Positions 2,194 to 49,070 of a stretch of DNA of 49,349 nt are shown here, piece by piece. How positions within the stretch are numbered: the first letter of the stretch is position 1; each line of letters starts with the position of its first letter. The translations under genes were made by a program, and so were the position numbers. This DNA comes from a virus (Duplodnaviria > Heunggongvirae > Uroviricota > Caudoviricetes), in the IMG/VR virus record IMGVR_UViG_2529292718_000007. The stretch is one strand, 5' to 3'. Below the pieces are notes generated by a model. That model made no database searches, was not told the origin of the DNA, and saw nothing but the letters and a program-made list of their open reading frames with translations.

Positions 2194-3237
2194 ATGCCGA
2201 ATATTGATATTTTTGAACGACGTACGATGCTTGAGCCTGTTATTCAGAATTTCAAGGCTCGTCGTTTTCTTCTTCGTACCTTTTTTCCTGGTGTTCAGAC
2301 CTTTAATACAAAGAAAGTTGATCTGGATTTTGTTCGCGGTGGCCGTACTATGGCTCCGTTTGTTGGTAAAGGTTTTGGCTCAAAAACCGTTGAGCGACGC
2401 GGCTTTGTAACGAGAACTCTGGAGCCACCACTTGTTGCACCTGATTTGGTAACAACAGCCGAGCTGCTTTTAAACAGGCTTCCGGGTGAGAATATTTACA
2501 ACGCAAAATCGCCAGCAGAACGAGCCGCCGAGCAATTAGGTAAAGATTTGCTTGAGCTTGATGAAATGGTTAACCGCCGTGAAGAATGGATGTGTGCACA
2601 AGTCTTGTTTACGGGGCAGGTTGATATTGTTGGTGAAGGAGTGGATGACACAGTTTATTTTTGGCCTGAAGAGGAAGGAGATAAACCATATCTTGAACTG
2701 ACAGGTGATGATTTATGGAGTGCAGCAAAATCAGATCCGTTAGTCAATGTTCGCAACTGGAAACGTCGGGTATCACTAACTTCAGGTTTTACACCTCGTG
2801 TTGCCGTAATGGGCGCAAAAGTTGTTGATGCCTTCGTTAAAAATGAAGCAGTAACTAAATATCTTGATAATCGCCGAAAAGAGCTTGGGTATATTGAGCC
2901 TAAAGAGTTAGAAGAAGGCGTAACTCATTATGGCAATCTTGAAGGTGTCGATTTTTATGGTTACGACGAACTTATTCGCAATGATAAAACAGGAAAACCT
3001 GAACCATTAGTACCGGAAGATAAGATCCTCTTTGGCTCTCCTGGTCGAGGAACGATGCTGTATGGTGCTGTAGAGCTTGTAGATGACGCCGAAAAGACTC
3101 TAACGATTGTTGAGTCACCACGAGTTCCAGACACCTGGGTAACTCGTAAGCCGGCTGGCCGTTATGTTGCCATGAAGTCATCTCCACTGCCTAATCCTGG
3201 TGTGGCTGATGCCTATCTGGTGGCTAAGGTGGTTTAA
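2194..3237 (+). CDS. Major capsid protein (lambda E family)
   Basis: 347 aa; size and position; N-terminal region resembles E-family capsid proteins. Confidence 0.8.
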   Translation: MPNIDIFERRTMLEPVIQNFKARRFLLRTFFPGVQTFNTKKVDLDFVRGGRTMAPFVGKGFGSKTVERRGFVTRTLEPPLVAPDLVTTAELLLNRLPGENIYNAKSPAERAAEQLGKDLLELDEMVNRREEWMCAQVLFTGQVDIVGEGVDDTVYFWPEEEGDKPYLELTGDDLWSAAKSDPLVNVRNWKRRVSLTSGFTPRVAVMGAKVVDAFVKNEAVTKYLDNRRKELGYIEPKELEEGVTHYGNLEGVDFYGYDELIRNDKTGKPEPLVPEDKILFGSPGRGTMLYGAVELVDDAEKTLTIVESPRVPDTWVTRKPAGRYVAMKSSPLPNPGVADAYLVAKVV

Positions 3238-3630
3238 ATGGCCAGACTGATTAAAAACATTGATACGATAAGCCACGGCTCGCTAAAAGCGGGCCGTTTG
3301 CTTAATGGGCTAATGGATAACTCCAGAATTGCCGAACTGATTGCGTCAGGACATGCTATTGCCACCGAAGAGGATGGTGATTTGGCATCGGCTGGGGGCT
3401 ATGATGCTGCTAAGTTAGCTTTTGAGCATGGATACGCATCTGCTGTTAATGATGCTGTGGACGCGGGGTTGATTACGCGAACGGAGGCGGGTAGCTGTGT
3501 ATTCGAGGTTGAGTTTGAGGATGATGGCGGCAATGAGGAAATGGTTGCTGATGATTCATCTGAATCTGTAGCTACTTCTGATACCAGTAATGCGAAAAAA
3601 TCAACGCAAAAAAAAGGTAATAAGAAGTAA
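3238..3630 (+). CDS. Hypothetical acidic head-associated protein
   Basis: 130 aa ORF abutting capsid gene; acidic C-terminus. Confidence 0.4.
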   Translation: MARLIKNIDTISHGSLKAGRLLNGLMDNSRIAELIASGHAIATEEDGDLASAGGYDAAKLAFEHGYASAVNDAVDAGLITRTEAGSCVFEVEFEDDGGNEEMVADDSSESVATSDTSNAKKSTQKKGNKK

Positions 3631-18308: not shown

Positions 18309-18782
18309 AAGATAATCATGTGACCAATTATTGTAATAATTTTAATGGTATGTTTCTACTGGCTATCCAGCGTGTCTGATATCCAGTAACAAATCGTCAA
18401 CACGGGTGCAATCAAATGGTGAGTGTTAAGACTGACCACTTATTACCAGGTATGAGTGGCCAGCATTAAATCAGAACAGCCCTTTAACTGAACTGGCCGC
18501 GCTGTTAAGGGATGATGTCACCTTATCTTTGAAGCCGGACAGCATATTGCTGAACGATGAGTTTACCGCAGGTTTCTGGCTGGGAATCATTGACTGGAGT
18601 TAGGCCAGTAGTATGATGCTCGCAAAACGAGATCCAATTTAGATCCTTTTACTGGTGGATTATCGTTCGATCAGTGAGAGACTTCGTGCATGACCGAAAG
18701 TGTTGTGGTAGAGTTCTCTTAAAACCACGTAACGTGGTTATGATTGTGGGTGTCTGGTTGGAAAGTGACCAGATATGGAAAC

Positions 18783-22468: not shown

Positions 22469-22741
22469 ATGACGGGTTATGAATTGAAATTATGGCGTCG
22501 TGGGATGAACTGGACGCAGGAGCGAGCCGCCGAATAATTTGGGATATCGTTGGCTACATATAAGCGATATGAGAAGGGGGAGCCGCCGAGGGTCATTGAG
22601 ATGGCCATTCGCGTTCTGTCGTTTGACGATATGGTTAAGGATCTTTCACACCTTGATAAAGATGCGATTCTGTTAAGGCTGCAAACCCTTGTATGGGAAA
22701 AGGTTAAAGTGTCGTCAGAATTGGAACAAGGGATCAAATGA
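22469..22741 (+). pseudogene. XRE-family HTH gene interrupted by in-frame TAA
   Basis: ATG 22469 with strong SD GAGGAGGA; MTGYELKLWRRGMNWTQERAAE then TAA at 22535-22537, same frame continues ...FGISLATYKRYEKGEPPRVIEM... to 22741. Confidence 0.55.
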
Positions 22742-22792
22742 TCCTTTACGGATCGTTTTATGGTGGTGTAATGTAAGCGCCAGAAAGACAAA

Positions 22793-23347: not shown

Positions 23348-24490
23348 TTATGGTCTGCTTTTCTGTGCGAGCTTATCAGCACATGTTTTTATCAGCTCCT
23401 GTAGTGTCCTGGCTGGCAGGTTTGCATCCAGTACGCTGAGTATGCTGTTGTGATCTGCCTGGTCGACTACTTTGCCTGTCGGTGGTAATAGCTTGAGCTG
23501 AGGATTCAGGTTTTCGTCAAAGCTGATAAGTGCTCTGGCGTTTCTGAGCAGATCAAGAAGTAAGGCTGATATCACATTTTCCTGAGTCATTGCTGGCAGA
23601 TTTAGCGCCGCTTTGGTTTTCCCTGTTGCCTTGTCAAACTCCTTGATTAGTTCCTTCCTGTAGTTCGGTTCCGTTAATAGCCGATTATGCTCTGTTGCCG
23701 CGCGGATAATCGTTTTTTCCTGGTACAGTCGTTTAGCCAGATCGCGCTCGTACTGTGTTTTTAACACGCTGCTGATAGCGCTAAAGGCTTCAATGTAGGC
23801 CAGCTTGATATCCTTCACGCCTGGACCGTCGATACTTTCCATGAGCAAGGTAAATCCGTCTTTTGTCATGCGATAGATTGTTATTTCGCGGTCGCTTCCT
23901 TCCAACGGTCGTTGCTCTTTAAAGAAATGACGCGCCGCAGCTGTGCGAGGAATGCGTAACGCATCGATGGCCATAACGATGGAATTGTTTGTGGTGCTGA
24001 ATGCTTGGGCAACATCGGCTGAGGTTGTGAGTGGCTCGTTATTGCACACCTTAATGTAAAACATCGGTTTGGCGTTGAGCGTATCGACAACCTCACGAGC
24101 ATTGTTTGGCGAGACGGTTACGGTCGCGGCCGTTTGCGCGTTCTGGTTGAAGTAGCAGTCTTCCAGCCGTTCGAATACATCCCACGCCTGATCGGTTTCG
24201 AGCATTTTAGCGTGACGTGCAGCCCCGCGTTCGGTCCAGAGGATTAGTTTTCTAACGTTATTCGCGATGGTTTGAAAATCTCTTAAAGAGATTTTCAAAC
24301 TTTGGAGATCTGTACCTTTTACAATTATGAAATGTTTTCCTTCTGTAAACCGGGACTTATTACGGTGGTGATTTCTGTGAAGACATTCGACGCTACAGCC
24401 ATATAGTTTGGCAAGCAGCTCCGTGGTGATAACGGGGATCTGGTTATGCAGGATAGGCTGTAGGGTGTTAACGGTCGGAAGAGTTTTCAT
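23348..24490 (-). CDS. ant: Phage antirepressor / Rha-family regulatory protein
   Basis: 380 aa; two Rha/antirepressor-like segments (IPVITTELLAKLYGCSVECLHRN; PLTTSADVAQAFSTTNNSIVMAIDAL). Confidence 0.55.
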   Translation of the reverse strand: MKTLPTVNTLQPILHNQIPVITTELLAKLYGCSVECLHRNHHRNKSRFTEGKHFIIVKGTDLQSLKISLRDFQTIANNVRKLILWTERGAARHAKMLETDQAWDVFERLEDCYFNQNAQTAATVTVSPNNAREVVDTLNAKPMFYIKVCNNEPLTTSADVAQAFSTTNNSIVMAIDALRIPRTAAARHFFKEQRPLEGSDREITIYRMTKDGFTLLMESIDGPGVKDIKLAYIEAFSAISSVLKTQYERDLAKRLYQEKTIIRAATEHNRLLTEPNYRKELIKEFDKATGKTKAALNLPAMTQENVISALLLDLLRNARALISFDENLNPQLKLLPPTGKVVDQADHNSILSVLDANLPARTLQELIKTCADKLAQKSRP

Positions 24491-24678
24491 TTTGCACCTC
24501 CCATAACTACTTTGGTTACGAGGGAGATTTTTGCGTCAGAAACAGCGTTATCGTTGCTGGCGATGCGCATAGCTTCGCGCTCGATTATTTCAGCCAGGCG
24601 GAGTTTATCGGCGTATGAGGCTTTCTTGAGAAGGATCTTTACGAGGTTGACGTAATAGTCATGGGGTAGGTTTGTCAT
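24487..24678 (-). CDS. Small protein co-transcribed with antirepressor
   Basis: Track ORF 24487..24714; internal ATG at 24678 has GGAGA SD; stop overlaps ant start (ATGA). Confidence 0.45.
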   Translation of the reverse strand: MTNLPHDYYVNLVKILLKKASYADKLRLAEIIEREAMRIASNDNAVSDAKISLVTKVVMGGAK

Positions 24679-37822: not shown

Positions 37823-37898
37823 GGCCCCTTAGCTCAGTGGTTAGAGCAGGCGACTCATAATCGCACGGTCATCGGTTCAAATCCGGTAGGGGCCACCA
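37823..37898 (+). tRNA. tRNA with CAU anticodon (Met or lysidine-type Ile2)
   Basis: 76 nt cloverleaf: acceptor GGCCCCT/AGGGGCC, D-stem GCTC/GAGC, anticodon loop CTCATAA, T-arm ATCGG-TTCAAAT-CCGGT, 3' ACCA. Confidence 0.85.
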
Positions 37899-38206: not shown

Positions 38207-38794
38207 ATGGAGGCAATTGCATTGTTTAATCTGATTTATGCAGATCCCCCCTGGGAATACAAAGATAAGTGTAAGGATGGGAATCGTGGAGCTGGTTTTA
38301 AGTATCCAACGATGAAAGCTGAGGATATTGCTCGTATTCCTGTCTTGCAGCTTGCTAATCCTGAATCGTGTTTGTTGGCCATGTGGTGGGTTCCGACTCA
38401 GCCAGAAGAAGCGTTGCTGGTGGTGAAAGCATGGGGATTCAGGCTTATGACCATGAAGGGCTTCACATGGAACAAATGTGGTAGCCGACAACCAGATAAG
38501 CTGGTGATGGGGATGGGGCATATGACTCGTGCAAACAGTGAAGATTGCTTGTTTGCGGTAAAAGGCAAATTGCCGACCCGCCTTGATGCGGGGATCATTC
38601 AGTCGTTTACATCGCCTCGTCTGGAGCATTCTCGGAAGCCTGATGTGGTTCGTGACAAGCTGGTAAGGCTGTTAGGTGATGTTCCTCGTATTGAGCTGTT
38701 TGCTCGCGGTGATTTACCTGATGGTTGGCATGGCTGGGGCAACCAGTGCAATGGAGGTATCCAGTTGCATGATGCTCTCTGGCAAGTGGTATAG
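38207..38794 (+). CDS. DNA N6-adenine methyltransferase (MT-A70 family)
   Basis: 195 aa; hallmark DPPW motif (LIYADPPWEY). Confidence 0.8.
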   Translation: MEAIALFNLIYADPPWEYKDKCKDGNRGAGFKYPTMKAEDIARIPVLQLANPESCLLAMWWVPTQPEEALLVVKAWGFRLMTMKGFTWNKCGSRQPDKLVMGMGHMTRANSEDCLFAVKGKLPTRLDAGIIQSFTSPRLEHSRKPDVVRDKLVRLLGDVPRIELFARGDLPDGWHGWGNQCNGGIQLHDALWQVV

Positions 38795-40955: not shown

Positions 40956-41579
40956 ATGACAAAACATCTTAATGTGGTTTCTTTACCACTTTCTGTGTTG
41001 ATTGGTTATGAAAAGAACGCTCGCACACACTCCGTGGAGCAGGTAGATCAGATTGTTGCCAGCATACAGGAGTACGGATGGACTAATCCGATCCTGATAG
41101 ACGAGAACAACGTTGTAATTGCTGGTCATGGTCGAATTGCTGCGGCCACTCAGTTGGGGATGGATGACGTTCCCTGCATTGTTCTGGAAGGGCTAACGGA
41201 GAATCAGAAGAAGGCATATCGTCTGGCCGACAACCGTATTCCGCTGAATGCTGGTTGGGATGAAGAGCTGTTAAGCGCGGAGCTTGCAGATCTTGCGGCC
41301 GATGATTTTGCTCTGGACTCAATTGGTTTTACTCAGCGCGAACTGGATAACTTATTGAGTGCGGCGGTCTACGATGACACAGAGGGTATGGATATCCCAT
41401 TTGAGAAGGATGAGGCCAAATCAGGCGTAAAAGTTCAGTACCTGTCATTTGGAGGTCATAAAATCCCGGCAACGGATGAGGAAGCGGATCGTTTTGACTG
41501 CGCGGTGTCTCGTTATGTTGATGATAATGGCAGCTATATCGGATTTGTATCCGCATTGCTGGCTGGGGAGGGGTGCTGA
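40956..41579 (+). CDS. ParB-like nuclease domain protein
   Basis: 207 aa; N-terminus parallels 44245..44835 (KNARTHSVEQVDQIVASIQEYGWTNPILIDENNVVIAGHGRIAAA). Confidence 0.7.
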   Translation: MTKHLNVVSLPLSVLIGYEKNARTHSVEQVDQIVASIQEYGWTNPILIDENNVVIAGHGRIAAATQLGMDDVPCIVLEGLTENQKKAYRLADNRIPLNAGWDEELLSAELADLAADDFALDSIGFTQRELDNLLSAAVYDDTEGMDIPFEKDEAKSGVKVQYLSFGGHKIPATDEEADRFDCAVSRYVDDNGSYIGFVSALLAGEGC

Positions 41580-42952
41580 TGCTTCACCTCAATTACGACA
41601 TAACGCACCTACGTGGCGCGGAATATAACCCGCGTTTTATCGGTGAGGATGATCTTGCGAGGCTGGCGGAAAGCGTCAGGGAGCTGGGGCTTGTGAAGCC
41701 ATTGATAGTGCGTGGCGATTTGCTGGTGGCGGGACACCAAAGGACGAAGGCGCTACGTAAGTTGGGAATAACGCGTGCTGCGGTGTATGTGTTGCCCTGT
41801 GAAACGACGGTATACGACGAAGTACGGTTTAACCAACTGCATAACGGAACGGATTTTGATAGCGGAGATGAGCGTTGCAGGGTGTCCGGTCTGGAAGATA
41901 AGCATGGTTTTGTTCAGGTATCGGCAAGCCAGATCTCAGGCAATATGCGCGCGAAAATGGCATATGTTCGAAAGAACATAGCGGAACTGGTTATCAAGTA
42001 TGGTCCGTGGGGTGGTTGTGTTGCTACTCAGTCTGGCGAGGTTATTCACTGTGCTCAGTATGCATTAGCAGCGAAGATGACGCGCACACCGCTAACGGTG
42101 TTTGTGATCCCTGATGTTGAGAAGGGAAAATACCAAAGTTATCTGAATAAAACTTATGGTGTATTTGAGTATTCTCATCTGGAGAAAACAACATACATCC
42201 AGACGTATGCGCAGCTTATGCGGTTGCGTAATGGTGGCAGCCTGAAATCAAACCTGTATGAGTCGTTGATCCTCCCGATCATCGCCAAGACGCCAAGAGG
42301 AATTGATTTTGGTTCGGGGCAGGGAGACTACGCGCGAATGCTCAGGGCAAAGGGATATAACCTGCATGATCTCGAGCTTTTCCGCCGTAAGGGCGCTGGA
42401 AACACTCTGGATAGGACCGCAACAAACCGGATGATTGATACGCTGGTGGACGACTTAAAAACGCGAGGGCGTTACGACTACGTGATTTGCGATAGCGTTT
42501 TGAACTCGGTCGATAGTGTCGAGGCTGAATGGTCCGTTCTGACGGTTCTGAAAGGCCTGTGTAAAGCTGGTGGGTCAATATTCTTTTCTGGTCGTAGCCG
42601 TGGAGAGCTGGAAACAGTCCTGAAGCAAACACAAGCGGCGAGTTCCAAAAGCCGGCTTTATTTTATTGATCATAACGGTTTTACCGCGTTGTACCGGAAG
42701 GGGCACTGGTTTTACCAGAAGTTTCACTCTGATGATGAAGTGAAGCAGTTGTGTCGTGTACATGGTTTCAGGATTAAGCGGTCAATATTCAACTGTAAGA
42801 GCTGGTATTTGCACGTCATTAACGATGATTCCCTTAGTTGGGCGAGTCTGGAGAAAGCTGTTCGTTTTGAGTTTGAGTTGCCGTTGCCTGGTGGTTCAAC
42901 AATCGGACGATCTGATGATGTGCTGGCGGCTTTCCGGCCGTTGATTAAGTAG
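41573..42952 (+). CDS. ParB-like N-terminal domain fused to a class I SAM-dependent methyltransferase-like domain
   Basis: 459 aa; N-terminal ParB-like motif (LIVRGDLLVAGHQRTKAL); C-terminal SAM motif I IDFGSGQGDYA with downstream acidic residue and YVICDSVLN motif; no DPPY/DPPW motif. Confidence 0.55.
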   Translation: MLMLHLNYDITHLRGAEYNPRFIGEDDLARLAESVRELGLVKPLIVRGDLLVAGHQRTKALRKLGITRAAVYVLPCETTVYDEVRFNQLHNGTDFDSGDERCRVSGLEDKHGFVQVSASQISGNMRAKMAYVRKNIAELVIKYGPWGGCVATQSGEVIHCAQYALAAKMTRTPLTVFVIPDVEKGKYQSYLNKTYGVFEYSHLEKTTYIQTYAQLMRLRNGGSLKSNLYESLILPIIAKTPRGIDFGSGQGDYARMLRAKGYNLHDLELFRRKGAGNTLDRTATNRMIDTLVDDLKTRGRYDYVICDSVLNSVDSVEAEWSVLTVLKGLCKAGGSIFFSGRSRGELETVLKQTQAASSKSRLYFIDHNGFTALYRKGHWFYQKFHSDDEVKQLCRVHGFRIKRSIFNCKSWYLHVINDDSLSWASLEKAVRFEFELPLPGGSTIGRSDDVLAAFRPLIK

Positions 42953-42968: not shown

Positions 42969-43688
42969 GTGGCTGACAGAATTGAGATAAAGATGGATTT
43001 TTCTTCTCAGGATATTCAACGACAACTCCAGCGCCTTGAAGAACGCGAATTGCCGTTCGCAATGGCGCTTGCGGCAACCAGAACGGCAAAGGCTTCTCAG
43101 GCTGCGATTAAGAATGAAATTAATCGGGTATTTGACAGGCCCACGCCGTGGATTCAGAACTCTACTTACGTTTTGGCCGCAAAGAAGAGTGATCCTACAG
43201 CCATTGTGTATGCTCGTGAATGGGGAGGAACGCCAGCCCCTGTAACGTTGACTCCGCAAATCGAAGGTGGACAACGACAGTACAAACGCTCAGAAGGGGC
43301 GCTAAGGGCTGGTGGATATTTGCCTAACGGCTGGCAGCTTGCTCCTGGTCCCGGCGCAAAGCTGGACAAATACGGGAATATTTCGCGGGGGCAATTACAG
43401 CAGGTCTTATCTGGCCTAAGAGTTCAGCGAGATGCGCATCAAAATCGCCGTCAGGGCAAGCCTACGGAGTTTTTTGTTGTTCGACCTGGTACAAGTAACC
43501 CGCTTCAACCAGGCGTCTGGCAGCGCGTTGGGCGGCGTCCTACGTTGATCCTTACGTTTATCCAGCAACCTAACTATTCGCAGCGTCTTGATTGGCATGG
43601 CGTGGCGCTGCGTGCTGGTGAGGATGCGTTTGCTGATGAAGTCACAAAGGCTATTGATGACATTCTTTCTAAGACTTTCTCTCGTTAA
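42969..43688 (+). CDS. Hypothetical protein
   Basis: 239 aa ORF; no family recognised. Confidence 0.5.
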   Translation: MADRIEIKMDFSSQDIQRQLQRLEERELPFAMALAATRTAKASQAAIKNEINRVFDRPTPWIQNSTYVLAAKKSDPTAIVYAREWGGTPAPVTLTPQIEGGQRQYKRSEGALRAGGYLPNGWQLAPGPGAKLDKYGNISRGQLQQVLSGLRVQRDAHQNRRQGKPTEFFVVRPGTSNPLQPGVWQRVGRRPTLILTFIQQPNYSQRLDWHGVALRAGEDAFADEVTKAIDDILSKTFSR

Positions 43689-44244
43689 TCATCGTGTGGT
43701 TGATGGTGTTGTTATGCAGAGTGTATTCACTGTGTTCTGTAGCGTCGCTCGCTGGCTGTCTGTGGGGGAGCACGAGCATCGTTTCATCGTCCGGCAGAAT
43801 TGGGTCCTTCTGGCCAAAAGCGTTGGATGCGGGTCATTCGAACCCCGATATTCGGCTAGCTAAACGTGAAAAAAGTTAGGTTAAAAGTTGCGGTAAAAGA
43901 AATTTACTCATCTCATTGAAAAATATCGGGAAAACGTGATTTTTTCTGTATTTGTACTGGTAAAAAGAAAGTGGAAAATTTTCTTTTAGATCATCAAGAT
44001 ACGCGCAGATCTTTAACCAATGTGATGTTGTTCTGATAAAAATCGTTATAAATCATGCAAATACATCCAATCTTTTAACCAAAACACCATCGCAAGATCC
44101 TTTTTACTTATAAAAACTTAATAAAATCAGATAATTATGCTGGTTTGTGTGATTTTTTATGAGTAAAAAGATCGTCATTTTTCTCTTTTAGTATCAATAA
44201 GTTAAACAGTTTTCTTTAACCTGTTGTGTTATGGCGGTTAAAAA
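43689..44244. promoter_or_regulatory. AT-rich intergenic region upstream of packaging/structural operon (candidate late promoter and packaging-site region)
   Basis: About 550 bp without convincing ORFs; three TCTTT(T)AACC repeats (44010-44018, 44071-44080, 44213-44221) and four GATC sites within about 185 bp. Confidence 0.4.
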
Positions 44245-44835
44245 ATGGCTCTAAAAATCGAATATTTACCAGTCGGTAAGTTGCTCAGATATGCCAAAAA
44301 TTCACGGACTCATTCAGATGAGCAAGTTGAACAGTTGGTGAACAGTATCCGTGAGTTCGGTTTCACTAATCCTGTGCTGATCGATGAAAAGAATGAACTG
44401 ATTGCGGGGCATGGGCGGCTTGCAGCAGCCGAAATTCTGGAAATGGATAAAGTTCCGGCGATTCGGTTGAGTAACCTTTCTGAAAAACAGAAGAAGGCTT
44501 ACAGGATTGCAGATAACAAGCTGGCCTTAAATGCTGGCTGGGATATGCAGCTTCTGGCCGAAGAAGTCAAAGAGTTAATGGATGATGATTTTGATATTGA
44601 TCTGCTTGGGTTTAATGATGCAGAGCTTGACGAAATGTTAAGCGATGAACAGCCGCAGGAAGAAGACGATAATTCTTCCCCTGTTGTTCAAATTAAGTAC
44701 CTGGCTATTGATAAAGAACGTATTCCCGCGACGGATATGGAAATTGCATTGTTGCTGGATGTTTATCGTCAGTACCACGACGCGCATGAAACGCATGAGG
44801 GATTTGTTCAGTATCTTGCTAATGGTTGCAAGTAA
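44245..44835 (+). CDS. ParB-like nuclease domain protein, immediately upstream of terminase genes
   Basis: 196 aa; N-terminal ParB/Srx-type motifs (KNSRTHSDEQVEQL, LIAGHGRLAAA); paralog of 40956..41579; stop overlaps terS start. Confidence 0.7.
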   Translation: MALKIEYLPVGKLLRYAKNSRTHSDEQVEQLVNSIREFGFTNPVLIDEKNELIAGHGRLAAAEILEMDKVPAIRLSNLSEKQKKAYRIADNKLALNAGWDMQLLAEEVKELMDDDFDIDLLGFNDAELDEMLSDEQPQEEDDNSSPVVQIKYLAIDKERIPATDMEIALLLDVYRQYHDAHETHEGFVQYLANGCK

Positions 44836-45386
44836 TGGCCATCGTCAGTAAGTCAGAGTTTGCCCGCCGGAAAGGTATTTCTCCGGCAATGGTTACGAAG
44901 CTCTGTCGTTCCGGTCGCATTCCAGTGCTGAAAAGCGGCAAGCTGGATTTTGATAAAGCCAGTGCGGCTTATGAAGCGAGCCGACAGGTTGGTCGTGAGG
45001 TATCTGCTGAAAATGGAAAAAGAGGGCATGGGATATCTTCGGAACAACCAGAGTTACCCGCTGATGATGCCGGATTAGCTGGTGGTACTTCCGGTGTTGC
45101 GGTGCAATTCAACAAGGCTAAGACCGCAGAAAAAATTTATCAGGCAAAGCTGAAACGCCTTGAATTTGAAGAAAAGGAAGGCTCTCTCATCGCTAAAGAT
45201 GCGGTCAGGGATGATGCATTTCTGGCAGCTAATGAATTGCGTAGCCGCTTATTTAGTATTGCTCCAAGAGCAGCTCCCCGTTGTGAAGGCAAAACAGCCA
45301 GGGAGATCGAGCGCATTATTGAAGACGAGATTAATTTTGCGCTTCAGGCGCTCCAGGAATCCCGATTTATTAAGCAGGAAGAATAA
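44835..45386 (+). CDS. terS: Terminase small subunit (Nu1-like, N-terminal HTH)
   Basis: Position directly before large terminase; N-terminal HTH-like segment SKSEFARRKGISPAMVTKLCRSGRIP; track ORF starts at TTG 44826, ATG 44835 preferred. Confidence 0.6.
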   Translation: MAIVSKSEFARRKGISPAMVTKLCRSGRIPVLKSGKLDFDKASAAYEASRQVGREVSAENGKRGHGISSEQPELPADDAGLAGGTSGVAVQFNKAKTAEKIYQAKLKRLEFEEKEGSLIAKDAVRDDAFLAANELRSRLFSIAPRAAPRCEGKTAREIERIIEDEINFALQALQESRFIKQEE

Positions 45387-45391
45387 ACCTC

Positions 45392-47248
45392 ATGGGCGAA
45401 ACAGTATGGAGCACCGCTTTTTTCCGTGCGCTTCGCCCTAAATCACGGCTAACTGTTTCCGAATGGGCTGATAAGTATCGTCATGTAGCGCCGGGAACGT
45501 CTCCAGAGCCAGGGCCGTGGCGTACAAGCCGAGTGCCATATTTGCGTGAACCAATGGATGTTATTGGTGACGCTGATACAGAAACAGTAGTGATGCAATG
45601 TAGCTCGCAAATTGGTAAATCCGAATTACAGCTAAATGTTATGGGTTACTTTGCAGATCAGGAGCCATCTCCTCAGTTGATGATTTATCCAACGGTAGAG
45701 GCGGCTGAGGCTTTTTCAAAAGAGCGTATTGATCCGACGTTCAAATATTCCCCTGGTTTGAAACACAAGCTGCATGAAGGGAAAGAGGGGCGCGGTGCAG
45801 CCAAAAAGTCCAGCACGACTATACGTATGAAGCATTACGCTGGTGGATATATAGCACTTGTTGGTGCTAATTCCCCAGCAGGTCTTGCATCCAGGCCAAT
45901 TCGAATACTGTTAGGTGATGAGATTGATCGTTACGGTGTGACGCAGGAGGGCGACCCACTAAAACTAGGTATTCAGCGTACTACCAACTTTCATAATCGT
46001 AAGAAAGTTTTTGTTTCTACTCCTGTTTTGGAGGAAACAAGCAAAATCCACAAGTGGTTTAAGCTCTCCGATCAGCGTTACTACCATGTTCCTTGCCCAT
46101 GTTGTGGCACCATGCAGGTGATGAAATGGTCGCAAGTCAGATGGGATAAGAGCGATTCAGGTGAGGCGTTACCGGAAACGGCCAGATATGAGTGCTGTGA
46201 GTGCGGCGGGATTATGCGCGGATCTGGTAAACCAGACGTTGATTGGTTGGCGAAGGGGGTATGGATAGCTGAACATACTGGAGTTAAAGGTATTGTTGGT
46301 TTTCATATTAACAGTCTTTACTCCCCGTGGGTTGCATTGTCAGAGCTGGTTGAAGAATTTACGGAAGCAACCAGAAACCGCGATAAAAATGGATTAATGG
46401 AGTTTATTAACCTTAAGCTGGGTGAGCCATGGAAAGAGGATGCTAAAGACGATATCGATCCTGAATACTTGTTGCAACGCAGAATAAGGTTTGAAGAGTT
46501 TTTACCAGATGATGTTTTATTGTTAAGTGCTGGTGTTGACGTACAGGACACGTATTTAGTTTGTGAATTGGTCGGTTGGGGAAAAGGTAAGGAGTCATGG
46601 GGGATAGAATATAAAATATTCCCAGGTGATCCCGCACAAGATGTTGTCTGGAAACAACTTGATGAATACTTACTCCGTAGCTGGTCATTCCGTGACGGTC
46701 GAAAATTACAGATTTCTTCCGTTTGTATTGACTCTGGTGGGCATTTTACGACAGAGGTATATCGCTTTACTAAGCCGAGAGAATCAAGGCGAATATACTC
46801 TATCAGGGGGCGTGGTGGGGTAGGTTTACCATTTATAGGAAAGCCAAGTAATAATAACCGTGTGGGTGCTATGTTGTTTAATTTGGGGGTTGATGATGGT
46901 AAAGGGACCATCATGGCAAGAATTAAACTACATGATCCTGGTCCTGGTTATATGCATTTCCCATTAGATTCTGACAGAGGATATGATACCGAATACTTTA
47001 AAGGATTATTATCAGAGAAAAAAATATTTGAATATAAAAATGGGCAGACAAAAGAAAAGTGGGTGAAAGTCTACGAGCGTAACGAGCCTCTTGATTGCCG
47101 TAACTATGCAACTGCCGCGATGGAAATTCTGAACCCTAATTTTAACTGGCTTGCCGAACAGGAAATGCGAGGTAATGTGTATGTGCAGAACTCGTCAGGT
47201 ATACGTAGAAGACGCCGTAGAGTTATAAGTAAAGGCGTAACCATATAG
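45392..47248 (+). CDS. terL: Terminase large subunit (lambda GpA family)
   Basis: 618 aa; GpA-like features (TVSEWAD, Cys-rich CPCCG...CCECGG, ICIDSGGH) and position before gpW-like and portal genes. Confidence 0.85.
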   Translation: MGETVWSTAFFRALRPKSRLTVSEWADKYRHVAPGTSPEPGPWRTSRVPYLREPMDVIGDADTETVVMQCSSQIGKSELQLNVMGYFADQEPSPQLMIYPTVEAAEAFSKERIDPTFKYSPGLKHKLHEGKEGRGAAKKSSTTIRMKHYAGGYIALVGANSPAGLASRPIRILLGDEIDRYGVTQEGDPLKLGIQRTTNFHNRKKVFVSTPVLEETSKIHKWFKLSDQRYYHVPCPCCGTMQVMKWSQVRWDKSDSGEALPETARYECCECGGIMRGSGKPDVDWLAKGVWIAEHTGVKGIVGFHINSLYSPWVALSELVEEFTEATRNRDKNGLMEFINLKLGEPWKEDAKDDIDPEYLLQRRIRFEEFLPDDVLLLSAGVDVQDTYLVCELVGWGKGKESWGIEYKIFPGDPAQDVVWKQLDEYLLRSWSFRDGRKLQISSVCIDSGGHFTTEVYRFTKPRESRRIYSIRGRGGVGLPFIGKPSNNNRVGAMLFNLGVDDGKGTIMARIKLHDPGPGYMHFPLDSDRGYDTEYFKGLLSEKKIFEYKNGQTKEKWVKVYERNEPLDCRNYATAAMEILNPNFNWLAEQEMRGNVYVQNSSGIRRRRRRVISKGVTI

Positions 47249-47259
47249 AGGAAATATAA

Positions 47260-47499
47260 ATGAACAATGAAGCATTTTCTCTGACTGAAGCCAGAGAGAT
47301 GTTATCTGTCTGGCGGGAAGCATATCGCGCTATTGCTATTGGCGGTCAGTCATATAAATTTGGTACGCGGCAGTTAACTCGTGCGGATTTATCAGAAGTC
47401 AGAAAAGAGATGGATTACTGGCGTAATGAAGTAGAAAGATTATCAGCAGGTGTACGCCGAGGCCCACGAATTAAACGAGTGGTGATAAGAGATTTATGA
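47260..47499 (+). CDS. Head-tail joining protein (lambda gpW-like)
   Basis: 79 aa between terminase and portal, as gpW in lambda-like head modules. Confidence 0.6.
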   Translation: MNNEAFSLTEAREMLSVWREAYRAIAIGGQSYKFGTRQLTRADLSEVRKEMDYWRNEVERLSAGVRRGPRIKRVVIRDL

Positions 47500-49070
47500 A
47501 TATTCTTGATCGAGTTATTGCGCCGTTTTCACCTCAGAGGGCATTAAATCGAGCTTTGGCAAGAAAACGGTTAGAAGCACTTGAAGGTATTAATAACCTT
47601 GGATATTCACGTCATGGTGCAAGCACTCATAAAAAATCATTAAGGGGTTGGTTTAGTAAAGCTGGTTCTCCTGATGATGATATTGTTAAAAATATAGATA
47701 AATTGCGTGAGCGTTCTCGTGATCTCTTCATGGGAAACCCGCTATCTGTTGGCGCAATAAAAACTATCAGGACAAACGTTGTTGGTTCCGGTTTAAAACT
47801 AAATGCGAACATTGATGCCGATTTCTTGGGGATGACGCAGGAAGAAGCGCGAGCATGGGAAAAGCATGTTGAGCGTGAGTTTAGATTATGGGCTGATTCT
47901 CCAAATTGTGATGCATCAAGAATGTGTACTTTTGGACAATTGCAATCATTGGTCCAAATATCTGCGTTAACATCTGGCGATATATTTGCTGCGCTACCAG
48001 TTATTAAGCGTAAGGGTGTTATATATGATTTGTGCGTCTATTTAATTGAAGGTGATCGTGTTTGCAATCCAGAGGATCGTTTTATACCAAATCTTTACGG
48101 TGGCGTAGAGGTTGGTGAATTTAGCGAGCCTGTGGCGTACTGGGTTGCAAAACATCACCCAGCCGGGACTTCTGGTTTTGTAACCCGCAAGTGGGAACGT
48201 ATTCCCGCATATGGGAGTAAAACAGGAAGAAGAAATATTCTGCATGTCATGCAGGATTTTGAAAGGCCTGGGCAACGCCGTGGCGTTCCTGTCCTTGCTC
48301 CTGTAATTGAAGCATTGAAGCAGTTAGGGCGATACACCGATGCTGAATTGGTTGCTGCGGTTGTGTCAGGGATGTTTACTGTCTTTATTAAAACAGACGC
48401 TCCTGATGGGCCAGTCGGTGAATCGGGTATCCCTCAGTACGAGCAGATCGATAACCATGATGATAACACCCAAGAAATGGGGAATGGCTCCATAGTAAGT
48501 TTGGGTGAAGGTGAGTCGATAGATACAGCAAATCCCGGGCGACCAAATACGGCATTTGATGGTTTTGTTGTCGCCATATGCCGTCAAATTGGGGCTGCTT
48601 TAGAACTCCCTTACGAACTCTTGGTAAAGCATTTTACAGCAAGTTATAGCGCAAGCAGGGCCGCATTACTTGAAGCCTGGAAAATGTTCCGTATGCGACG
48701 TGACTGGATGGTTCAGTCATTTTGCCAACCGATCTATGAGGAATGGTTGGCCGAAGCCGTTGCTAAAGGTCGTGTTATTGCCCCTGGTTTTTTTTATGGG
48801 CCTGAATATCGCGCTGCATGGAGTGGCGCTCAATGGTATGGCCCATCACAAGGCCAATTAGATCCTCTTAAAGAAGTCAAAGCTGCAAAACTGCGTGTTG
48901 AGGAAACATTCTCTACCCGTGAAAAAGAAGCGGCTGAAATGTCAGGTCTTAACTGGGAAGAAACCGCACAAATCTGTGGCAGAGAAGAGAATGCTCGCCG
49001 TGAGTTGGGGCTTATTACACCTCCTGTTTCTGAGGTAAATGAACAAAATATGGAGACTGATGATGCCTAA
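47496..49070 (+). CDS. Portal protein (lambda gpB family)
   Basis: 524 aa following terminase/gpW; C-terminal 240 aa repeated at 1..723 because the window wraps. Confidence 0.85.
   Translation: MNILDRVIAPFSPQRALNRALARKRLEALEGINNLGYSRHGASTHKKSLRGWFSKAGSPDDDIVKNIDKLRERSRDLFMGNPLSVGAIKTIRTNVVGSGLKLNANIDADFLGMTQEEARAWEKHVEREFRLWADSPNCDASRMCTFGQLQSLVQISALTSGDIFAALPVIKRKGVIYDLCVYLIEGDRVCNPEDRFIPNLYGGVEVGEFSEPVAYWVAKHHPAGTSGFVTRKWERIPAYGSKTGRRNILHVMQDFERPGQRRGVPVLAPVIEALKQLGRYTDAELVAAVVSGMFTVFIKTDAPDGPVGESGIPQYEQIDNHDDNTQEMGNGSIVSLGEGESIDTANPGRPNTAFDGFVVAICRQIGAALELPYELLVKHFTASYSASRAALLEAWKMFRMRRDWMVQSFCQPIYEEWLAEAVAKGRVIAPGFFYGPEYRAAWSGAQWYGPSQGQLDPLKEVKAAKLRVEETFSTREKEAAEMSGLNWEETAQICGREENARRELGLITPPVSEVNEQNMETDDA

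Follow-up and report, generated by a model that had tools for sequence, protein, structure and literature searches.

A probable cos site with a lambda-like layout precedes the packaging genes of an enterobacterial phage-plasmid

We analyzed a stretch of DNA of 49,349 nucleotides, deposited as IMG/VR virus record IMGVR_UViG_2529292718_000007 (Caudoviricetes) and hereafter called the window, and focused on the gap at positions 43689-44244 that precedes its packaging genes. This gap is probably the cohesive-end (cos) site of a phage-plasmid, with a layout like that of phage lambda, and the short repeats found in it are candidate docking sites for the terminase. It is a cos site of the ordinary kind, previously undescribed, and the literature searched contained no published description of it or of the cos sites of its relatives. 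The element is a phage-plasmid because its annotated relative pMS21199B encodes repA, a ParA gene, lysis genes, lambda-like head genes, and P2-like tail genes, and it is a myovirus of 47-49 kb. The 1.5 kb around the gap was 100% identical to Escherichia phage vB_EcoM-613R2, and 98-99% identical to three Yersinia pestis phages, vB_YpM_39, vB_YpM_41, and vB_YpM_44. Moreover, plasmids of 47-50 kb with >95% identity were found in 72 of 5426 complete E. coli genomes, and further plasmid matches came from the E. coli reference strain ATCC 25922, Klebsiella aerogenes, E. albertii, and E. fergusonii, with the family also present in Salmonella.

An initial annotation, made from the letters of the window, had suggested that the gap is a cos or pac region. 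In agreement, records of relatives begin or end at the positions equivalent to 43832 and 43844 of the window, both inside the gap, and the large terminase subunit (TerL) gene adjoining the candidate site belongs to the GpA family, according to Pfam. The annotation missed the likely nicking site, cosN, some 180 bp before the first of its listed repeats. This candidate site is the 12-mer GGTCATTCGAAC, found in the context GCG/GGTCATTCGAAC/CCCG, where the slashes mark the likely nicks. The records of vB_YpM_41 and vB_YpM_39 begin with GGTCATTCGAAC CCCGATG and finish with ...GGATGCG, and that of vB_YpM_44 begins with CCCGATG and finishes with ...GGATGCG GGTCATTCGAAC; this assignment of the 12-mer now to the left and now to the right end is the pattern that assemblies of cohesive-ended DNA would give. 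The Vibrio relatives were reached through the small terminase subunit (TerS; 42% identity by tblastn), and among them, the records of phages R20L and PVP-XSN begin with GGTGCTCGCGAC/CCCG and finish with ...GGAGCG, the record of phage XM1 carries the 12-mer at both ends, and that of X29 at the right end. In all, five Vibrio records showed such ends at this homologous site. The record of Acinetobacter phage HFM1, with a TerS 35% identical by tblastn and a GpA-type TerL, contains a feature described as '5' cohesive sequence ... identified by PhageTerm', placed at the homologous GCG/GG...GAC/CCC junction. Two metagenome contigs begin exactly at the G equivalent to window position 43832, and the core GGGTCATTCGAACCC was exact or one base different in every related locus. 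The record ends of the Yersinia, Vibrio, and HFM1 relatives, the two contig starts, and the conserved core therefore led us to place cosN at 43832-43843, to within one base. The presence of the 12-mer at both ends of the XM1 record, which is the record of a relative only, fits the fill-in of a 5' overhang, and the overhang of this element is probably 5'-protruding too. When the 16-mer of this region was searched among viral contigs, the hits in three loci (L054, L056, and L057; related loci are given here by L numbers) were unrelated chance matches, and a structured RNA or tRNA remnant at GGGTCATTCGAACCC was discarded, as there was no Rfam match at E <= 1 and the sole tRNA of the window is at 37823-37898.

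The flanks of the putative cosN were also conserved. To its right, the pattern CCCG....TTCG.CTAGCTA.A is common to the Salmonella-type, L011-type, and Vibrio phages. To its left, 19 of the 24 columns of 43799-43822 were invariant in three enterobacterial lineages, versus 7 of 28 just upstream, and this block includes the box GGGTCCTTCTGG, which may play a cosQ-like role. At an equal distance, the box is found as GGGTCCTTCTGGG in the Vibrio phages XM1, R20L, and PVP-XSN, and also in the Yersinia-type loci L073 and L076.

The initial annotation had reported three TCTTT(T)AACC repeats at 44010, 44071, and 44213, and these coordinates were exact, with all three repeats on the plus strand as written: TCTTTAACC at 44010 and 44213, and TCTTTTAACC at 44071. 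In 5000 dinucleotide shuffles of 43844-44244, this pattern was expected 0.012 times. Read on the other strand, it becomes GGTTAAA(A)GA, and when GGTWAAARR was searched on either strand, seven of the ten matches in the whole window were within 43844-44244, where shuffles expect 0.1. The three repeats are, thus, minus-strand members of a larger GGTWAAARR family. We counted eight sites, i.e., the GGTWAAARR matches plus two degenerate copies and minus GGTTAAAAA at 44236, which was left out as it overlaps the ribosome-binding region and is not conserved. The copies, named a, b, c, R1, R2, f, g, and R3, are listed in Table 1 with their distances from cosN. The repeats are clearly non-random. The region was also described as AT-rich, and this held for about 43850-44244 (28-30% GC), the first 140 bp of the gap having about 50% GC. 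A-tract periodicity gave only a weak peak near 10.5-10.8 bp and was not used.

The arrangement of these copies was compared in six enterobacterial lineages: the E. coli type, the Salmonella type (~67% identical), the L011 type, and three Yersinia-type loci found via TerS homologues with 52-57% identity. Despite identities of ~67% or lower, the distance from cosN to the ATG of the first packaging-operon gene was 397-403 bp in all six, and copies at +37, +50, ~+117, ~+171, ~+232, and ~+373 were found with alike orientations. The counterpart of copy a was at +37 to +39 in every lineage, Vibrio included. In phage vB_YpM_44 (L003), a 90-bp deletion in the cosB-like array breaks this otherwise strict spacing. 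Copies f and g are the arms of an imperfect palindrome, and these arms change in parallel, with ACTTAT/ACTCAT in the E. coli type and ATCCAT/ACCCAT in the Salmonella type. R3 pairs with an inverted half-site, AGTTAAAC, at 44200-44207 (inverted repeat I13), and the A/T position of the motif was taken as a true W because R3 of the Salmonella type reads TCTTTTACC. IHF-consensus matches on the same strand were observed at +282 and/or +349 in several lineages: a match at +282 to +284 is present in the window, L005, L011, L060, and L076, and the match at +349 to +351 occurs also in L011, L060, and L075.

Table 1. Features of the candidate cos region and its gene neighbourhood (distances given as + are counted from cosN).
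Feature	Position	Strand	Remarks
Protein of 239 amino acids, PHROG 1924	42969-43688	+	Directly before the gap
Gap of 556 bp	43689-44244		Between the gene of the 239-amino-acid protein and the ParB-like gene
cosQ-like box GGGTCCTTCTGG	43802-43813	+	Starts 30 nt upstream of the putative top-strand nick; within conserved block 43800-43822
Putative cosN, 12-nt cohesive-end sequence GGTCATTCGAAC	43832-43843	+	Predicted nicks 43831/43832 and 43843/43844, +/- 1
Conserved right flank of cosN, CCCGATATTCGGCTAGCTAAACG	43844-43866	+	Common pattern given in the text
Copy a, GGTTAAAAG	43879-43887	+	+37; 9/9 columns invariant in all enterobacterial lineages
Copy b, GGTAAAAGA	43892-43900	+	+49; counterpart at +49/+50 in all enterobacterial lineages, +55 in Vibrio
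Copy c, GGTAAAAAG	43959-43967	+	+116; counterpart at +116 to +119 in E. coli, Salmonella, and Yersinia types
Segment of 90 bp with GATC1, GATC2, and R1	43969-44058		Deleted in vB_YpM_44, a plaque-isolated Yersinia phage; dispensable there
Span with four GATCs (43989, 44008, 44096, 44170)	43989-44173		GATC2, GATC3, and GATC4 abut R1, f, and g
R1, TCTTTAACC (reverse complement GGTTAAAGA)	44010-44018	-	+170; minus-oriented copy at +170 to +172 in 6/6 enterobacterial lineages
R2, TCTTTTAACC	44071-44080	-	+232; minus-oriented copy at +231 to +234 in Yersinia-type lineages; degenerate in Salmonella type
Copy f, degenerate, CCTTTTTAC	44099-44107	-	+257; left arm of imperfect palindrome 44096-44173 (inverted repeat I1)
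IHF-consensus site AATCAGATAATTA (WATCARNNNNTTR)	44125-44137	+	Between copies f and g
Copy g, AGTAAAAAGA	44162-44171	+	+320; right arm of palindrome 44096-44173; 8/9 columns invariant
Second IHF-consensus site TATCAATAAGTTA	44192-44204	+	Perfect match to WATCAANNNNTTR; 0.08 expected in shuffles
R3, TCTTTAACC	44213-44221	-	+373; copy at +366 to +375 in all enterobacterial lineages
ParB/Srx N-terminal-domain protein, 196 amino acids	44245-44835	+	Pfam ParB_N E = 3.8e-8; PHROG 620; first gene after cos
TerS, 183 amino acids from ATG at 44835	44835-45386	+	PHROG 57, E = 7e-42
TerL, lambda gpA type	45392-47248	+	Pfam GpA_ATPase E = 1.6e-75, GpA_nuclease E = 1.1e-84
DUF6148 protein	47260-47499	+	After TerL
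Open reading frame of 524 amino acids	47496-49070	+	pMS21199B counterpart annotated as portal protein

The repeats had been proposed as small-terminase sites, and this remains plausible, strengthened by the kept positions and orientations, by covariation with TerS, and by the motifs of HFM1, with the binding itself a deduction. The repeat motif shifts in step with the predicted recognition helix of TerS: in the E. coli, Salmonella, and L011 types, the motif is GGTWAAAGA and the helix SPAMVTKL; in the Yersinia type, they are GGTTAACAA and SRAA(I/V)TKL; and in the Vibrio phages, GGTTAACAC and SHVWVKKL. The AlphaFold model of TerS showed a confident N-terminal winged helix-turn-helix (HTH) domain at residues 5-56. 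Moreover, HFM1 lacks the ParB-like gene, yet GTTAA-type motifs are present between its PhageTerm-annotated cos end and terS. These observations suggest that the repeats are bound by TerS. As a natural experiment on the binder of the array, locus L032, with an apparent TerS identity of 49% and an unchanged array, was rejected, as the gene is frameshifted: in L032 (IMGVR_UViG_2880350357_000007, 3001-3540), a Salmonella-type terS is broken by frameshifts while the cos region and the ParB-like gene are intact. L023, another copy of the element from this genome, is intact.

With these elements, a packaging mechanism can be proposed. The GpA-type TerL would make staggered nicks flanking GGTCATTCGAAC, generating 12-nt cohesive ends, probably 5', and the GGGTCCTTCTGG box 30 nt upstream would act as cosQ and terminate packaging. 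A cosB-type assembly platform would be formed by the ~400 bp of AT-rich DNA that separate the nick from the first packaging-operon gene, with eight GGTWAAAGA copies at fixed distances from the nick: those at +37, +49, and +116 point away from cosN, those at +170, +232, and +257 point back, and the last is at +373, with the inverted pair f (+257) and g (+320) flanking the IHF site. The N-terminal winged-HTH domain of TerS would bind the repeat copies, IHF could bend the DNA between f and g, and TerL would then be positioned on cosN. Packaging would run rightwards into the ParB-like, terS, and terL genes, and end at the next cosQ-cosN.

Several points weigh against this interpretation. The Yersinia records are labelled circular and have no terminus annotation, so the ends were read from the record boundaries of relatives, and the nick positions are good only to one base on either side because the X29 boundary differs by one base. 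The cosB of lambda has 120 bp, and one of 400 bp with eight sites would be over three times as long, so part of it could serve another purpose. Feature columns were 77% invariant, against 39% in the remainder, in three lineages (Fisher P = 3e-11), a test that is partly circular, since some features were first noticed through conservation. The closest folds to the TerS N-terminal domain were the DNA-binding domains of Xis, BldC, RacA, and MerR, with target-normalised TM values of 0.6-0.69 and non-significant E values (E >= 0.3), and were used as a fold-class hint only. The conservation of GATC3 and GATC4 around the IHF site, described below, also counts here, and, since the ParB-like protein covaries with lineage no less than TerS, the two cannot be told apart by covariation.

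This last point leads to the possibility, which we regard as unlikely, that the array is bound by the ParB/Srx-fold protein and not by TerS, or not by TerS alone, and that this protein is a cos-specific accessory factor that marks, protects, or helps to cleave cos. The motif does change with the ParB-like lineage too, ParB proteins load at sites adjoining their own genes, and the window encodes three ParB_N paralogues. In addition, phages from E. coli to Vibrio, including X29 and XM1, keep the order ParB-like, TerS, and TerL directly after the genome end, which suggests a packaging-linked role of the ParB-like protein, previously undescribed. However, the motifs of HFM1 are found with no ParB-like gene between cos and terS, and contigs L104 and L125 have no GGTTAA repeats, even though they share the cosN and encode a ParB-like homologue. 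Apart from ParB_N, the protein showed no HTH or other domain for sequence-specific DNA binding, and TerS is the specificity subunit of the cos and pac systems that have been characterized (PMC4669245). The three paralogues are within 4 kb (40956-41579, 41573-42952, and 44245-44835); two have about 200 amino acids and the same C-terminal tail, and the third is a ParB_N domain fused to a Methyltransf_23 domain.

Another explanation, rather improbable in our view, is that the AT-rich region serves chiefly as a late promoter driving the operon of the ParB-like, terS, and terL genes, in which case the repeats would be operator or activator sites and cos would span only the first ~60 bp. In its favor, the head and packaging operon starts immediately after the region, 400 bp would make a long cosB, and repeat arrays with IHF sites are typical of activator-dependent promoters. 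Nonetheless, no sigma-70-like promoter was predicted in the region of the window, in the Yersinia-type L073, or in the Vibrio phage X29, against 0.5-2.8 in shuffles, but this evidence is weak because the scan would miss promoters that depend on an activator. All the upstream genes share one strand and no terminator was predicted, in the region of the window or in two relatives, so lambda-like read-through would be sufficient. Moreover, in the Vibrio phages, the whole 140 bp is filled with repeats, the first of them 39 bp from the physical end. The Rfam scan of the region gave no match.

The GATC sites were the other element of the initial annotation, which had counted four of them and considered the cluster far denser than expected. 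The number was right, as were the coordinates 44008 and 44096, while those given as 43988 and 44169 were one base off (43989 and 44170). The density was upheld against the local AT-rich composition only, with 4 observed in 43844-44244 and 0.83 expected (P ~0.006, 5000 dinucleotide shuffles). In the whole window, GATC is under-represented (136 observed vs 185 expected), and when 136 sites were placed at random in 49 kb, four GATCs within 185 bp arose in 80% of the placements; in addition, a second, equally dense cluster was found at 22640-22751. The cluster is, thus, only mildly unusual. All four sites are 146-327 bp to the right of the nick, with none within 43689-43988, and three of them arise where a motif copy ends in GA and TC follows. 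Across the homologous interval, members of the E. coli type have 2-5 GATCs and those of the Salmonella type 1-3, L011 has 4, Yersinia-type loci have 0-1, and the Vibrio phages have none. The Salmonella type lacks GATC1 and GATC2, which are both inside the 90 bp deleted in vB_YpM_44. Three lineages retain GATC3 and GATC4; L012 and L031 have lost the pair, and L014, L023, and L032 have lost GATC4, in each case with the adjoining GTAAAAAGA core preserved. Judged from these comparisons, the GATC sites are mostly a by-product of the motif copies and not a conserved control element.

The annotation had also proposed that the GATC cluster could couple packaging or late transcription to adenine methylation. 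P1 is a phage-plasmid with a pac site that contains clustered GATC-bearing repeats and an IHF site, and its cleavage depends on Dam methylation. By analogy, methylation of the GATC adenines would control the assembly of the terminase or late transcription, and cos would be cut only if fully methylated or if SeqA were absent. Besides the local excess, this explanation is favored by the overlap of three GATCs with the edge of a motif copy (GATCTTTAACC, GATCCTTTTTAC, and GTAAAAAGATC), by the position of GATC3 and GATC4 at +254 and +327, flanking the IHF site, in the three lineages that keep them, by some E. coli-type relatives (e.g., L004 and L070) that lose the GATC of R1 and gain one at R2, and by the MT-A70 (DPPW) adenine methyltransferase encoded by the element. 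However, the array is intact in the Yersinia-type loci and in Vibrio, with at most one GATC or none; Salmonella-type members go down to one, L012 and L031 have neither GATC3 nor GATC4, and vB_YpM_44, which lacks GATC1 and GATC2, is a viable, isolated phage. An equally dense cluster is expected by chance somewhere in the window, the MT-A70 enzyme is outside the Dam family, and no promoter was predicted in the region. The comparison with P1 has limits as well: P1 uses headful packaging and has GATC hexamers on both sides of the cut, whereas fixed cohesive ends are proposed here, with GATCs on one side only, and relatives with this packaging machinery do not conserve them. We therefore consider this control to be improbable; a coupling to methylation is not supported, being neither required by the data nor a property of the family, although the two conserved sites that flank IHF may have a modulatory role in the E. 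coli/Salmonella lineage. A combined version, to which we also give a low probability, is that the ParB/Srx-fold protein is a conserved third component of the complex that initiates packaging. It would recognize the GGTTAA-core array or load at it, perhaps acting as a nickase or as a clamp that depends on nucleotides, with the GATC-overlapping copies making the assembly Dam-sensitive in the E. coli/Salmonella lineage. If so, such an assembly would let the plasmid prophage keep its own cos uncut until lytic growth.

The methyltransferase gene (38207-38794, MT-A70 family with a DPPW motif, N6-adenine) is just after the lysis genes and the tRNA, and the closest solved relatives of its product are MT-A70/METTL3-type enzymes. 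The tRNA, the only one found by ARAGORN, has a CAT anticodon and was called tRNA-Met; RefSeq calls the same gene of pMS21199B tRNA-Ile, presumably lysidine-modified. With regard to other GATC clusters, three sites are within 40 bp at 18631-18669, just downstream of a repA-like gene (positioned by offset from pMS21199B), and four within 112 bp at 22640-22751, in intergenic DNA close to an HTH gene. A search for repeats there gave no convincing family, with one weak two-copy match in the former and none in the latter.

Finally, a plasmid or lytic replication origin, suggested by the AT-richness, short repeats, IHF consensus, and GATCs that resemble iteron origins, was rejected as very improbable, since repA is ~23 kb away in pMS21199B (47512-48492 vs 24079-24634 for this region), no DnaA box with <=1 mismatch was found in 43689-44244, and Vibrio and Acinetobacter phages, whose records are linear, show the same architecture where their genomes physically end.

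We return, then, to the cos reading and to its closest known counterpart. The lambda cos is composed of cosQ, cosN, and cosB, with the terminase gpNu1/gpA and the IHF site I1; its cosB has 120 bp and three sites, and gpNu1 is of the winged-HTH fold class (PMC4669245). The region analyzed here resembles it in the GpA-type TerL and the likely 12-nt cohesive-end segment just upstream of the packaging genes, in the conserved box ~30 nt upstream of the nick, at the place of the lambda cosQ, and in the several short, putative TerS-type sites of mixed orientation between cosN and terS, with an IHF consensus within an inverted pair. In addition, the repeat sequence tracks the recognition helix of TerS, as when lambda and phage 21 are compared (PMC4669245). 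The differences are that the cosB-like part has ~400 bp and eight sites with a fixed length, that a ParB-like gene is located between cosB and terS, and that the element is a plasmid prophage with a contractile tail. The putative cohesive end shares only 3 of 12 identities with that of lambda, GGGCGGCGACCT, and TerS belongs to PHROG 57, with no match to Pfam Phage_Nu1. The site, as deduced from its layout, would work like the lambda cos, yet it is outside the 'lambda-like' group in the strict sense of PMC4669245 because of those 3/12 identities and the non-Nu1-type TerS.

The Vibrio phages X29, phi 2, vB_VpaM_XM1, PVP-XSN, and R20L belong to the proposed 'Weiviridae' (PMC11432961). Together with HFM1, they share with the window a homologous TerS, the GpA-type TerL, the GCG/GG.......AC/CCC junction at record ends, and GTTAA-core repeats starting ~38 bp from the end, and the Vibrio phages also share the cosQ-like box and the gene order. 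Nevertheless, the Vibrio array is compact, with five direct GTTAACA(C/G) copies in 140 bp, one orientation, no GATC, and no IHF consensus noted, and HFM1 differs in the missing ParB-like gene and in its 11-nt end. The right ends of XM1 (L065, 530-757), R20L, and PVP-XSN (L150 and L151) contain more GTTAAC(G/A)C copies 60-100 bp to the left of the cut, so that in these phages the repeats flank cosN on both sides, unlike in the window. The XM1 paper (PMC11432961), which describes none of these cos regions, and the vB_EcoM-613R2 preprint contain no terminus analysis, no paper describing vB_YpM_39, vB_YpM_41, or vB_YpM_44 was found in the literature search, and the vB_YpM_HQ103 paper has nothing on termini or on a relation to this element. 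The pSLy3 phage-plasmid group was considered as this family and discarded, as it belongs to the SSU5 supergroup.

The contigs L104 (Ga0209212_1011120, 9049 nt) and L125 (Ga0209727_1003934, 9207 nt) begin with GGTCATTCGAACCCCGA, at the same nucleotide as window position 43832. They encode an HTH protein, a D5_N primase-like protein, a DUF5131 protein, and the ParB-like homologue (59% identity), with no GpA-type terminase, and may be satellite-like elements that borrow the cosN of this phage family.

This phage-plasmid family is common, and its members have also been isolated as phages on Yersinia pestis. A known cut site and the sequences that likely recruit the terminase would allow correct linear genome maps to be drawn, and would help to predict co-packaged elements, of which the two 9-kb contigs with the cosN sequence are possible examples. 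They also define a 0.45-kb fragment for cos-based transducible vectors, and the constant layout of 400 bp and eight sites offers a testable model of how a TerS oligomer could organize DNA. The finding is an extension of lambda-type biology and not a new principle, with its use mainly in the annotation and engineering of a widespread phage-plasmid family.

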